This document shows, piece by piece, positions 22,641-60,870 of a stretch of DNA of 64,000 bases. A program made the translations under genes and the position numbers. Numbering within the stretch: the first letter of the stretch is position 1; each line of letters opens with the position of its first letter. This DNA is from Eledone cirrhosa. Its lineage: Eukaryota. The stretch covers positions 315,518,001 to 315,582,000 of the forward strand of contig OZ024741.1 of the NCBI GenBank assembly GCA_964016885.1. The letters are read 5' to 3'. The notes beneath the pieces are model-generated. The model did not search any database and was not told the origin of the DNA. It saw only the letters and a list, made by a program, of their open reading frames with translations.

Positions 22641-22825
22641 AGAATCTAGTACGAATTTTTTCAGGGGGATCTGGAAAATCTTTCTGAAACTGGGTGATTT
22701 GATATGGAATAACCCTATATATATATATATATATATATATATATATATATATATAATCAAGGTTTAGCAAATAATGAAAAAGTTTCAAAATAAATTTTAA
22801 AAAATTAACTTTACTTACTATAGTT

Positions 22826-22909
22826 ACCTTTACCGAATCGGTTTCGAATCTCAAAAATAAACGGTGACCATACGGCCTTCGTTGCAAAGAAAGATTCTCG
22901 TCAGAAGGT
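22826..22909 (-). ncRNA. Type I hammerhead ribozyme, canonical core
   Basis: Reverse complement of 23548-23631. Confidence 0.88.
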
Positions 22910-23547
22910 TCTTTTCATTCGAAGAATATAAAATTCTTGAATTTAAATTACGAACTAGCGCTATCCAAAACTGTTCCCGAGATGAGAGTAAATGAAGTGG
23001 AATCAATTTTTTCAAGGGCCGAAAGTAAAGATAGAGGCAGAGGTAGGTAGGTCAATCGGCCACCACTATCGCTAGCAGCAGTCGGAGCGACCAAATTTGT
23101 TCTCAACATAGAGGAGAATAGTAATAATAGGATATGTGTTCCTACACGCACAAGGTGCTAAGGGACACATGTATTGTCCAACCATATGCCAATGTGGTTC
23201 AATGGCAGGTTATTAAATTAACGAGCCAGAACATATATAATCAAGGTTTAGCAAATAATGAAAAAGTTTCAAAATAAATTTTAAAAAATTAACTTTACTT
23301 ACTATAGTTACCTTTACCGAATTATCCTATTATTACTATGCTCCTCTATGTTGAGAAAAAATTTGGTCGTTCCGACTGCTGCTAGCGATAGTGGTAGCCG
23401 ATTGACCTACCTACCTCTGCCTCTATCTTTACTTTCGGCCCTTGAAAAAATTGATTCCACTTCATTTACTCTCATCTCAGGAACAGTTTTGGATAGCGCT
23501 AGTTCGTAATTTAAATTCAAGAATTTTATATTCTTCGAATGAAAAGA

Positions 23548-23631
23548 ACCTTCTGACGAGAATCTTTCTTTGCAACGAAGGCCGTATGGTCACCGTTTAT
23601 TTTTGAGATTCGAAACCGATTCGGTAAAGGT
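23548..23631 (+). ncRNA. Type I hammerhead ribozyme, canonical core
   Basis: Stem I ACCTT/AAGGT; CTGACGA; stem II GAATCT/AGATTC with a long insert; GAA; stem III ACCGA/TCGGT; GUA triplet. Confidence 0.9.
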
Positions 23632-23950
23632 AACTATAGTAAGTAAAGTTAATTTTTATAAAATTTATTTTGAAACTTTTTCATTATTTGCTAAACCTTG
23701 ATTATATATGTTCTGGCTCGTTAATTTATTAACCTGCCATTGAACCACATTGGCATATAGTTGGACAATACTGTGTCCCTTAGCGCCTTGTGCGTGTAGG
23801 AACACATATCCTATTATATATATATATATATATATATATATACATATATATACATATATACATATATTAGGTATATATGTATATATATATATATATATAT
23901 ATATATATATATATATATATATATATATATATATAATATATATATATATA

Positions 23951-24726
23951 TAATAAGTTGACGGACCCAGCATAGGTACCAATGTTAGGACCGATTGCAT
24001 CTCAGCGTACTCAAAGGGTAATGTTAAATACACTCCCAGAGTATACACATAGTTATTCGCTTCAATACAACACACGTAAACGGGTGCCTATAGTAGTTCC
24101 CGAATTCGAGTTTCTGCCACATTTATGCAGCAGCAGAGTGCACAGCATCTTCTGTCCGCATATATTATGCAACAATGCATAATTGGCGCATGTGGCTTTA
24201 TCAGCGGGTTTCGCCTAATCAATAACCAATCGATCGACAGAATGGCAGGAGATTAGAAATCAAATAGTTCTGCTCCCGTCATAAGCTCTCAGCCAACTTG
24301 TCTAAATCAATAAGTTAGTGAAAAAATAGGGTATCAGAAAAAGCAGTCTCACATCGCTGTATAATAGAATGGTAGCATTCGGCTCTAGTCTCCAAGTCCC
24401 ATGGCGAGAAAATCGCGATAGTAACAGTGGTAGTGCATACAACCTTTCTGGACATTAAATGCCAACAGCTATTACACAGCGATATAGAGTAGAGCGCTGG
24501 TTAGCGACCAACCACGTGCGTAAACCAGTCTATTTCAAAACTTACACAATCTGCTAGTTGGGAGACAATAATAATAATAACTTGACGGACTCAGCATAGG
24601 TATCAATGCTAGGACTGGCTGCACCTCAGCGTACTCAATAGGTAATGTTAAATATACTCCCAGAGTATACACATAGTTATTCGCTTCAATACAACACACG
24701 TAAACGGGTATCTATAGTAGTTCCCA
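23951..24726 (-). mobile_element. Non-coding element with about 150-bp terminal direct repeats (624-bp period) and a degenerate HHR-like motif
   Basis: ttgacggac..cagcatagg...tatagtagttccc at 23958 and 24582. Minus strand AGTTGG-CTGAGA-GCTTA...TAGGC-GAAA...CCAATT at about 24181-24298. Confidence 0.55.
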
Positions 24727-24749
24727 GAGAGAGAGAGAGAACAGCAAAG

Positions 24750-24943
24750 AGGGTGTCGTAAGATACCAAGTGGACCATAACGCACCAAAGTACTCAATAC
24801 TTAAGGTAGTAGAGTGGGTTATAGGAAAAGAGTCAGGACCCCGACGGCTGAGCTTCGGCCGTTTAGATAGCTAGATCCGAACTTCTAGCTGTCGAAACGA
24901 CCTGAGCTTACCGGAACTTAGCTGTCGACTCCTGACTCTTTTC
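24750..24943. mobile_element. Mini foldback derivative of the Hydra-like PLE pLTR
   Basis: gtggaccataacgcaccaaagtactcaatactt...ccccgacggctgagc followed by an inverted copy. Same design as 2626-2810. Confidence 0.7.
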
Positions 24944-58500: not shown

Positions 58501-58945
58501 AGTTGTATGGTGGACAAGGTTGAAAGGGCTGAGGTCAGACACCTTTCTCTCCGGCCAACAACTGGTCCTTTTTTTCAAGTACCACTTTAGAAGAAGGATC
58601 AGAATGGAGAGAGAGGTGCTCTACCCCAGCAAGTTTTATGAAAGATGGGTGAAAGTAGCGAGAATGGCCCGAGTGAATGGGCCTTCTCTCTATATCAGCC
58701 TGTAGGTGAGAGAGGAGAAGAATGAGAAGAGGAAGGAAGCACCCGCTCTTTGTGCTCCTGAAGAGGAGGGTTGCACATTTTTTGGGGGGTGTGTGCGACC
58801 CATGTCAACGCCCCTCCCTATTGAGGACATCGATTGTTAAATTTAATTTGTTATATGTTTTTTTACACGTCTTTTTAAATGTATGTAAACTCCCCCCTTT
58901 GTATTTGTCCCAATCTTTGATGCCCTGGTGGCAAATAAATAGAAA
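55600..58945 (+). mobile_element. 5'-truncated Tx1/L1-clade LINE; ORF2 (APE, RT, CCHC-like) broken by about 2 frameshifts and 1 stop
   Basis: APE: VGDWNG.LD, WTW, LDRFLV, SDHKLV, GPGYWKLN. RT: KSPGLDGL, FRPITLLN, LDQSKAFDRVDH, RQGCPLS, AYADD. C-terminal CP...ETVAHAFVHC. 3' aaataaatagaaa. Markedly GC-rich. Confidence 0.95.
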
Positions 58946-58950
58946 TATAT

Positions 58951-59120
58951 ATCTACTACCACCAAACTCTCCTCCTCTCTATATCTACTGCCACCAAACT
59001 CTCCTCCCCTCTATATCTACTGCCACCAAACTCTCCTCCTCTCTATATCTACTGCCACCAAACTCTCCTCCTCTCTATATCTACTACCACCAAACTCTCC
59101 TCCTCTCTATATCTACAACC
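58951..59120. repeat. 32-bp minisatellite (about 5 copies), decaying to about 59585
   Basis: Unit atctactRccaccaaactctcctcctctctat. Confidence 0.9.
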
Positions 59121-59591
59121 ACCATATTCGCCCCCTCTCTATATCTAATCTACAGCAGTCTCTCTATACCAATCAATGCTACATTTTCTCTTTCTCTATA
59201 TCTATCACATGGCACTCACTTCCAACCCCCCTCCCTATATTAATTACCACTACACTCTCCAACTCTCTATACCTACCATACAAAACACGCTCTGAATCCC
59301 TCTCTCTATATACACTACCAACAAACTCTCCCCTCTCTATATATCTACCATACAACACACACTCTCTATATCAATTACCACTATACTCTCCCTCTCTATA
59401 TATCTACTACACGGTACTCTCTTCCAAACCCCCTCTCTATATCAATTAAAACTAAAGTCTCCCCCTCTTTATATCTACCGCGACACTGTGTCTTTAATCC
59501 CCCCTCTCTATACCAATCACCACTACACTGTCCCCCTCTCTATATCTACCATACGACAATCTCTCCCAATCCCCCCTCTCTCAATCAATTA

Positions 59592-59936
59592 CTCTCAGGT
59601 CTTGAATAATCATCGTCCCCCTTCCCACTTATTAAATTTTTCAAATTTTTCCACCCACCCCACTTTATTCACCCCGCTTATAAAATGTTACTAATCTATC
59701 TCCAGCGAAATGTTATTGTAAGTGATTCATATTGACACAGCAGCTGGAAAGTCTAATAATTATTTTATTTTACATTAACAAAACATTTATGACAAAAAAA
59801 AAGAGCACTACAAGTAATCCCATATTTACGAATGTAAACTATACAAATTACCCCCCCCCCCGCTTATAAGAATCGATGCAAATGTCCCCCCGCTTATTAT
59901 TCTAACTCCTTTCTCCTATTATTTGGGACCCGAGAG
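59592..59936. mobile_element. MITE with TA flanks (Tc1/mariner-type)
   Basis: TA-CTCTCAGGTCTTGAATAAT ... ATTATTTGGGACCCGAGAG-TA imperfect TIRs. Confidence 0.65.
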
Positions 59937-59977
59937 TATATATATATATATATATATATATTTGTGTGTGTGTGTGT

Positions 59978-60870
59978 GTAAGTCCAAAGAATCATTAGAT
60001 AAAATATATACAGTATTTCGTCTCCCAATCAGTATAAATTAACAACACAAAAAATCATTTAAACGAGGCTATACGATTAAAATGTACTTATGAAGAAATA
60101 ATAGACAAATGATACAGATTCTTTTCCGCGGTGTACAACCATATGACATTTACCTAGTATTTCTCATAGCCTGTAGAAATTGACTACACAAATAGTTAAC
60201 TACACGGAATTAGATACAAAATTGAAGTTAGAAGAAAAAATGCACATAAATATTACCAAAATTCTCATCGCCTCTACCAACCAGTGGTTTCGTTCCACTT
60301 TTGGGATGTATCCGGTCTTGGATAAATCCACAAAGCTCGGAACTCATCAAGAGATACCCAGACTGGACTAAGATTCTTCTACCATGATGCCTGCCAGAAA
60401 TGAATTCAAAATGGCTAAGAAACATCACATGGCCAGTGGTCAAGGCAGAAAGATTGTTATTGGTCCCTGTCGGCGAGTAGGCTGGTTGCTAGAAAGCGCA
60501 GCCGAATACTGCCTAAAGTTTTACTCAAACTTACGGGAGTATATATTAAATTCAAAGGGTATATATATATATATATATATATATATATATATTAGACAAA
60601 GTCACAGATATATATATGCGTGTGGCAACCATTCATGGTGTGGCTCAATGAAGAATTAATTAGATAATTATAAATCAGAGCAATTTACAAAAATGTAAGT
60701 CCAAAGAATAATTAGATAAAAATATATACAGTATTTTCTCTCCCAATAACTTGGTCTGATTAATAATTATCTAATTAATTCTTCATTGAATGACAACGTG
60801 AATGGTTGCCAAACGCATATATGTATCTGTGACTTTGTCTAATATATATATATATACCCTTTGAATTTTA
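59978..60870 (-). mobile_element. Retrozyme-like element, about 717-nt permuted unit, with an inverted partial copy
   Basis: gtaagtccaaagaat..attagataaaa..tatatacagtattt..ctcccaat at 59978 and 60695. Inverted repeat about 60549-60680 / 60752-60868. HHR at 60271-60354. Confidence 0.72.
60271..60354 (-). ncRNA. Type I hammerhead ribozyme (core TTGATGA)
   Basis: TCTC-TTGATGA-GTTCC...GGAAC-GAA-ACCA ctggt TGGT-A-GAGG; GUA triplet. Confidence 0.7.

Follow-up and report, generated by a model that had tools for sequence, protein, structure and literature searches.

Non-coding hammerhead families of Eledone cirrhosa as probable non-autonomous Penelope-like elements

Introduction

A stretch of 64,000 nucleotides (nt) from the genome of Eledone cirrhosa (assembly GCA_964016885.1, contig OZ024741.1, positions 315,518,001 to 315,582,000 of the forward strand; hereafter the window) raises the question of how short non-coding units, each with a type I hammerhead motif, come to lie in its microsatellites at slightly more than one unit length. 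An earlier note, made from the sequence alone, described stretches labelled here A (22752–23816), F (23951–24726), B (25098–25545), C (32938–33380 and 34638–35283), D (52678–53110) and E (59978–60870), and attributed them to retrozyme-like circular RNAs mobilised by the reverse transcriptase (RT) of co-resident Penelope-like elements (PLEs). All six are found at about these coordinates, F in minus-strand and D in plus-strand sense, and self-comparison reveals a terminal direct repeat in each, with offsets of 484 (A), 624 (F), 323/341 (B), ∼411–416 (C), 310 (D) and ∼717 nt (E).

The reading that best explains the data, to which we assign a probability of roughly two in three on the basis of sequence comparison, is that A, B, C, E and F are non-autonomous PLEs of the non-long-terminal-repeat (non-LTR) retrozyme kind, copied by PLE proteins into microsatellites from an RNA that was likely circular or joined at its ends, and that D is a broken pseudo-long terminal repeat (pLTR) of a coding PLE. 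The kind of element is already known from the non-LTR retrozymes of mussel, coral and axolotl, for which circular RNAs from the units have been shown and PLEs named as candidate mobilisers (PMC7229834; papers are cited here for the accessible parts of their text). A derivation from PLEs has also been proposed, in a 2026 preprint that links vertebrate retrozymes to pLTRs, favours local growth of arrays and, in its accessible parts, samples no mollusc (10.64898/2026.07.22.740005). Mobilisation by PLEs and a circular template are hypotheses in these two papers; the retrozyme-type units described here bear the start-site signature of PLEs.

Sequences and samples

Unit positions are given as +n, base 1 being the first base 3' of the predicted hammerhead cleavage site. 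The assembly containing the window comprises 3.0 Gb. DNA searches scored, for each unit, the best 40 of 2,000–3,500 candidates, which favours long copies; the best-hit copies analysed number 30 each for A, B and C, 29 for E (30 in the count of coding neighbours) and 27 for F. Hammerhead-anchored samples, based on exact pattern matches only, contain 26 A, 29 C, 18 E and 16 F copies, B being without such a sample. An evenly spaced sample consists of eighty 10-kb regions (800 kb). Family G, which lies outside the window, was analysed in 19 regions, three from the spaced sample and 16 from best hits (L227, L230, L255, L293–L309). Rows L156, L167 and L177 (the same F locus twice) and L071 (a near-copy of L069) were left out, as were four A loci and one C locus of the pattern samples that represent the same piece.

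Dispersed families with fixed 3' ends

At least 40 relatives of each unit were scored, spread over many contigs. Copies of A, B, C and E end at two fixed 3' sites per family (A +82/+191, B +141/+183, C +143/+180, E +309/+434), at one of which 29/30 A, 22/30 B, 29/30 C and 29/29 E best hits terminate; F has one 3' site near +147 and no head-to-head pair in 27 loci. A microsatellite follows the end of 29/30 A, 21/30 B, 24/30 C and 24/29 E best hits, and (TA)n stands at the end in 25/30 A, 21/30 C, 18/29 E and 19/27 F copies and in just 7/30 B copies. The 5' ends run back into the copy's own unit, giving up to 1.95 (A), 1.79 (B), 1.48 (C) and 1.75 units (E), and 1.45 of the long F unit. Copies were expected by the earlier note to start at different permutation points of the unit; instead, each family has only one or two fixed 3' ends, and variation is confined to the 5' ends. 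Closure, taken as more than 1.05 units, is seen in 25/30 A, 29/30 B, 29/30 C and 16/29 E copies among the length-biased best hits and in 8/26 A, 7/29 C, 3/18 E and 1/16 F hammerhead-anchored copies, which reproduce the best-hit end sites and include one A trimer. The interval between the start sites, or tail, measures 35–42 nt in B, C and G, 109 nt in A and 125 nt in E. The spaced sample, whose copies are mostly short 3' fragments, holds 0–9 insertions per family, diverged relatives included, and is too noisy for scaling to copy number.

Of the insertions with two head-to-head arms, 38 have both ends at a site, and in 37 of these each arm uses a start site of its own (A 7, B 1, C 11/12, E 4, G 14); 12 further pairs of A, B, C and E with an end off-site are left out of this count. 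The pattern-anchored samples, which partly overlap the best-hit sample, give 19 rows with different arm sites and two rows, from one insertion, with the same site. All six readable D loci also obey the rule, indicating that it belongs to the machinery.

Fixed internal 3' ends with a tail, 5' truncation, partial tandems and head-to-head inverted copies are found in the families, with the reservation given above for F. Published accounts of PLEs describe partial tandems, a 5'-truncated copy lying inverted at the 5' end and a tail that is often confined to one end (PMC8557442, PMC3846280); this tail corresponds to the stretch separating two internal sites at which the RT starts (PMC11167929). The data support A, B, C, E and F as independent, dispersed, non-coding families with the PLE insertion signature, which makes mobilisation by a PLE RT/endonuclease likely, as the earlier note had proposed; D is not supported as such a family.

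The longest ATG frames of the units encode 32–56 amino acids (aa) in sense and 17–87 aa in antisense orientation. PLE coding sequence on the same strand within 400 nt accompanies 0/30 A, 1/30 B, 2/30 C, 0/30 E and 0/27 F best hits, and 1/26 A, 2/29 C, 0/18 E and 1/16 F hammerhead-anchored copies (4/89). Three of these four neighbours lie downstream of the copy and one short RT piece abuts a C 5' end; none of the coding-neighbour copies among the 89 has an endonuclease end just upstream of the hammerhead. With coding neighbours this rare, the absence of a homologous open reading frame (ORF) and of LTR structure holds for A, B, C, E and F; it does not hold for D, which lies in a PLE ORF context. 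These counts bear on the explanation that none of the units forms a separate lineage, each being either a plain leftover of a pLTR or the product of a single deletion in a coding PLE. Such an origin is true for D, a few C copies do abut PLE coding fragments (L145, L345), and the searches scored 40 of the 2,000–3,500 candidates each. However, each of A, B, C, E and F closes on its own unit at a single junction common to the whole family, and subfamilies have formed; together with the rarity of coding neighbours, this already refutes such an origin for A, C, E and F on the scored samples, and as a general explanation it is improbable.

Two side observations concern C and B. A hairpin of C (unit ∼109–126) is a hot spot for an abundant short interspersed nuclear element (SINE), with a junction in at least 12 of 59 C loci and in the window at 34878–35234; the truncations differ, and the SINE 3' end is usually followed by AATTAT. 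The SINE positions were considered as evidence against a circle and dropped, the insertions being independent with different 5' truncations and the search favouring uninterrupted copies. Motifs of the ATGCAAAT type, which we take to be octamer-like, occur three times in C (33166–33274) and once in B (25300–25400) within related 22-nt repeats, and might represent a possible internal promoter.

The hammerhead motif

A strict type I motif scan of the window gives four matches (A twice, the coding PLE twice) against 0.18 per shuffle (50 shuffles), and C also matches in a scan that tolerates one mismatched pair where stem II begins; a mismatch there is described for an axolotl retrozyme family (Cervera & de la Pena 2020, PMC7229834; Li, Clavereau & Pollet 2026, 10.64898/2026.07.22.740005). 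In the spaced regions the tolerant scan yields 100 intact-core matches against 0 in each of 10 shuffles; 41 re-enter a unit, two lie beside coding hits and 57 are unclassified short pieces. The core and three stems are present, by motif and pairing and below the Rfam threshold, in all five families and in G, and the stem sequences are wholly unlike between families, yet paired. In B, F and G stem III is palindromic, so that cleavage may depend on dimers. Family-specific patterns detect intact cores in 27/30 A, 22/30 C, 16/27 F, 12/30 B and 10/29 E fetched copies, and exact 26–33-nt hammerhead patterns occur genome-wide 250 (A), 1,458 (C), 18 (E), 16 (F) and 3,923 (G) times, with 0 for reversed controls. 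The claim of a single type I hammerhead per unit stands for every family, although within the window the core is intact only in A (22904−, 23553+), C (33093−) and B (25285−, with a weak stem II), the E and F cores being altered (Table 1) and the direct copy of D carrying two changes. Two whole hammerheads are spanned throughout G and by 11/30 A, 3/30 B, 1/29 E and 1/27 F best hits, and C hammerhead pairs 404–444 nt apart occur in the genome-wide pattern list; no window copy has two hammerheads on one strand. As circles, the units fold better than shuffled sequences (z −3.1 to −11.6).

The number of matches per 800 kb implies a very high density of type I hammerheads genome-wide. Further hammerhead families that re-enter their own unit have periods of ∼322, 412, 466–470, 522 and 665 nt (L181, L197, L200, L204, L208, L211, L221, L227). 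In the window, a B-related head-to-head palindrome, 73–81% identical to B, lies between microsatellites at 63631–63924, and another hammerhead-like motif at 63407.

Unit D

In 20 of 30 D relatives the sequence continues past the hammerhead region into an ORF, and in three an endonuclease end lies upstream; D terminates on the start codon of the PLE ORF. D accordingly has the features of a pLTR, namely an endonuclease end upstream, a hammerhead and an ORF start downstream. Ten re-entries lacking the ORF have joints at different positions, three of them sharing a few upstream bases, and the 310-nt unit is a property of the window copy alone. D is not a retrozyme family, as had been suggested, and represents a rearranged pLTR of a coding PLE. 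The start motif of its ORF presumably points to Neptune, and together with a Cys-rich linker motif (PMC8557442) it is the basis for calling this PLE Neptune-like.

Mirror-image arrays of family G

G, a very young hammerhead family with a 310/311-nt unit and no copy in the window, supplies 22 of the 100 spaced-sample matches; a hairpin of G recurs in B (E 8e-6). Units on different chromosomes are identical, and the family shows almost no divergence. All 33 arm ends lie, by alignment, at +138–140 or +165–173 in TA-rich repeats, arms reach 16.6 units, and each of the 14 two-armed arrays uses one start site per arm. Among 168 units of 18 arrays the variants comprise three haplotypes present array-wide, one of them private to a 20-unit two-armed array, and 17 singletons, none shared between arms or arrays; none is at intermediate frequency. 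This is the pattern expected from repeated copying of a monomer and fits rolling-circle reverse transcription, and the data are compatible alike with a ligated circle, a nicked circle and jumps within the same molecule. As a separate observation, G was met in three of the 80 spaced regions, above the expectation from its exact matches.

Local tandem duplication or satellite-like unequal crossover after insertion could in principle have produced both the repeats and the G arrays. Such growth is proposed for vertebrate retrozyme arrays (10.64898/2026.07.22.740005), neighbouring units could be made alike by gene conversion, and a block of sites is shared by units 2 and 3 of the A trimer. This explanation is nevertheless very improbable in view of the dispersed copies with many different 5' ends, the identity of G units across chromosomes and the exact start-site ends on both inverted arms of every two-armed array. 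The G arrays point instead to an origin of the multimers in the insertion event rather than in subsequent crossover.

The template

Repeated reading of a single unit-length RNA predicts that the duplicated part carries identical alleles in both its copies. Divergence within versus between loci is 1.9 vs 2.7% (A), 7.6 vs 8.7% (E), 15.5 vs 18.3% (B) and 4.7 vs 5.0% (C), and of 2000 permutations 0 (A), 10 (E), 0 (B) and 272 (C) are at or below the observed value. At common two-allele sites the copies agree in 39/39 cases in A (22.2 expected), 41/45 in E (25.8) and 266/318 in B (180), and fully concordant loci number 21/21 (A), 6/10 (E), 7/28 (B) and 8/20 (C). The concordance indicates that A, B and E fit one template and that C does not. 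The circular-RNA template of the earlier note consequently finds indirect support from alleles in A, B and E and strong support from the arrays of G, and none from the unlinked alleles of C.

A mechanism consistent with these results would begin with transcription of a copy longer than one unit, from which the hammerhead would excise a unit-length RNA whose ends would be ligated or held together by stem I. A PLE protein would then nick both strands of an AT-rich microsatellite and prime at two internal sites of the RNA, as the biochemistry of PLEs suggests (PMC11167929). Copies stop at fixed sites, the two head-to-head arms of one insertion using different ones; copying crosses the hammerhead junction, re-enters the unit it came from and halts at variable points, and in families A, B, E and G the repeated parts carry matching alleles. 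A single template copied in rolling-circle fashion may underlie these features, with many rounds in G and one or two in A, B and E, while C probably often uses linear cut RNAs with jumps between molecules. The chances are about even for the fuller proposition of an active retrozyme system in which a PLE dimer primes two fixed sites of one ribozyme circle and so yields two mirror-image multimers per insertion, with G as the current lineage and A, B, E and F as older ones.

Several results weigh against this reading. The Rfam scan of the window that the earlier note had proposed returned no hammerhead at E ≤ 1, only noise from microsatellite hairpins, small Rfam scans of units A and C found no hammerhead, and G matches HH9 weakly (E 0.033, 17.8 bits vs a 52-bit threshold). 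No unit matches a pLTR position in 49 segments downstream of PLE endonuclease ends (∼1.5 Mb, a small part of the genome), none of the 30 best C hits spans two hammerheads, and identity to a single unit was the basis on which most G arrays were selected. Linkage among the sites of a locus makes the binomial p-values for concordance too small. A discordant site is present in 21/28 B and 4/10 E loci, although both families are old. In C, concordance is 29/42 (26.1 expected) with alleles unlinked, 12/20 loci are discordant, and the 5' ends crowd after the cleavage site, 12/30 best hits beginning within 28 nt of it. The A trimer is heterogeneous, units 2 and 3 being unlike unit 1 over a block of sites; the F copy of the window begins at the cleavage site, the start expected from a linear cut RNA; and an anole PLE inserts unprocessed RNA in vitro, cleavage not being required (PMC11167929).

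The C alleles and 5' ends, the A trimer, the F copy and the in vitro substrate would all agree with PLE mobilisation lacking a covalent circle, by linear read-through of a tandem copy or by RT jumps between the ends of cut linear monomers, within one molecule or to another, and a jump to the 3' end of the same molecule leaves a footprint identical to that of a circle. Set against this are the G variants, array-wide on both arms and with neither intermediate frequencies nor shared singletons, and the full concordance of every informative A locus, which together exclude jumps between random molecules and disfavour inherited linear multimers, although same-molecule jumps still fit. Mobilisation of this type is a serious if rather unlikely alternative to copying from a circular or end-joined RNA.

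Relation to known systems

The units resemble non-LTR retrozymes in being non-coding and a few hundred nt long, with a GC content below 50%, one type I hammerhead and a well-paired predicted circle, in co-existing with PLEs and in ranging from monomer to multimer. They differ in that the window families mostly span 0.3–2 units, whereas retrozymes form long arrays, in being known here from DNA alone, and in the long stem II insertions of A, E and F, with units of 484–829 nt. Fixed RT start sites, head-to-head arms and microsatellite targeting are seen here and are not described for retrozymes in the accessible parts of PMC7229834 and 10.64898/2026.07.22.740005. Of nine Xenopus retrozyme constructs, one cleaved (10.64898/2026.07.22.740005).

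With endonuclease-containing (EN+) PLEs the families share an identical insertion anatomy, two internal RT start sites with a tail interval, AT-rich or microsatellite targets and a hammerhead upstream of the start sites (PMC8557442, PMC3846280, PMC11167929). Unlike them, the families lack an ORF, A and E have long tails, and no sequence match to a coding partner is present among the 49 segments. Chlamys PLEs such as MRC1 are likewise non-autonomous and form pLTRs and multicopy head-to-tail insertions; in contrast to the families here they are algal, their 3' end resembles autonomous families, and their clade is described as devoid of canonical hammerheads (PMC8557442).

No paper on cephalopod retrozymes was found in a full-text literature search, most subscription papers and supplements lying outside its coverage, and the accessible part of an Octopus vulgaris repeat annotation contains 0 occurrences of hammerhead, ribozyme or retrozyme. 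What is new, and useful, are the family members, five of the six units being confirmed as families, and the G arrays and the arm rule as an addition to the mechanism. Since G has hardly diverged, its RNA, start sites and target are defined for in vitro testing, and the rule of one site per arm recasts the known one-ended tail of PLEs as a prediction about the PLE dimer that can be tested. If the proposed mechanism is correct, retrozyme arrays would record in the genome a target-primed reverse transcription of the rolling-circle type, and G would show it in progress.

Features of the window

Self-comparison of the window confirms the inverted partial copies of A, C, D and E, and most window copies end in microsatellite, both as previously described. 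The proposed unit sizes are correct for A (484 nt) and B (∼340 nt); those for C, D, E and F are specific to the window copies, the family units being 438 (C), 700 (E) and 731/∼829 nt (F). The stretch 34638–35283 does belong to C, its actual structure being a two-armed copy with two inserted SINEs (Table 1). Broken PLE frames adjoin the units; Pfam names two of 15 candidate PLE frames, one GIY-YIG and one weak RT, and a homolog search gives 131 mostly unnamed proteins of 620–810 aa.

Table 1. Hammerhead units and associated features in the window.
Feature	Position	Strand	Description
Family A arm 1	22752–23322	−	1.19 units of 484-nt unit; 3' end at short start site (+82) in (TA)n
Family A type I hammerhead	22826–22909	−	Intact core; stem II 52 nt; predicted cleavage after 22831
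Family A arm 2, head-to-head	23323–23817	+	1.02 units; 3' end at long start site (+191) in (TA)n
Family A arm 2 hammerhead core	23553	+	Intact
Family F copy	23950–24726	−	731-nt variant with extra ∼120-nt deletion; 3' end in (TA)n
Family F copy, 5' end	within 23950–24726	−	At predicted cleavage site
Family F hammerhead	24098–24208	−	Stem II insertion ∼85 nt; core change G8>A
Family B copy	25098–25538	−	∼1.3 units of ∼340-nt unit; 3' end in (CA)n
Family B hammerhead core	25285	−	Intact core, weak stem II
Co-resident coding PLE, broken	25546–28004		Inverted pLTRs; intact-core hammerheads 25641(−) and 27909(+)
Family C copy	32938–33382	−	Family unit 438 nt; small deletion in this copy
Family C hammerhead core	33093	−	Intact; predicted cleavage after 33060
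Family C two-armed copy	34638–35285		Minus arm 34829–34638; plus arm 34831–34879 + 35223–35285
Two SINEs interrupting C plus arm	34878–35234		
D, rearranged pLTR of coding Neptune-like PLE	52678–53110	+	Inverted piece 52678–52753
D landmarks		+	ORF start codon 52954; degenerate hammerhead 52971–53012
Family E main arm	59977–60747	−	1.08 units of 700-nt unit; 3' end near short start site
Family E hammerhead	60350	−	Core change C3>U
Family E head-to-head arm	60746–60874	+	Ends at long start site (+434) in (TA)n

Positions 14185–21154 hold a nest of young PLE fragments, 96–100% identical, with palindromic (TA)n-centred junctions, in which the motif scans detect no hammerhead. At 8157–13313 lies a Helitron Rep/helicase frame that runs for 1,718 aa without interruption and is accompanied by 69-nt repeats, and at 56444–58705 an RT frame of non-LTR type (Pfam RVT_1, E 5e-27) that has no connection with the hammerhead families.

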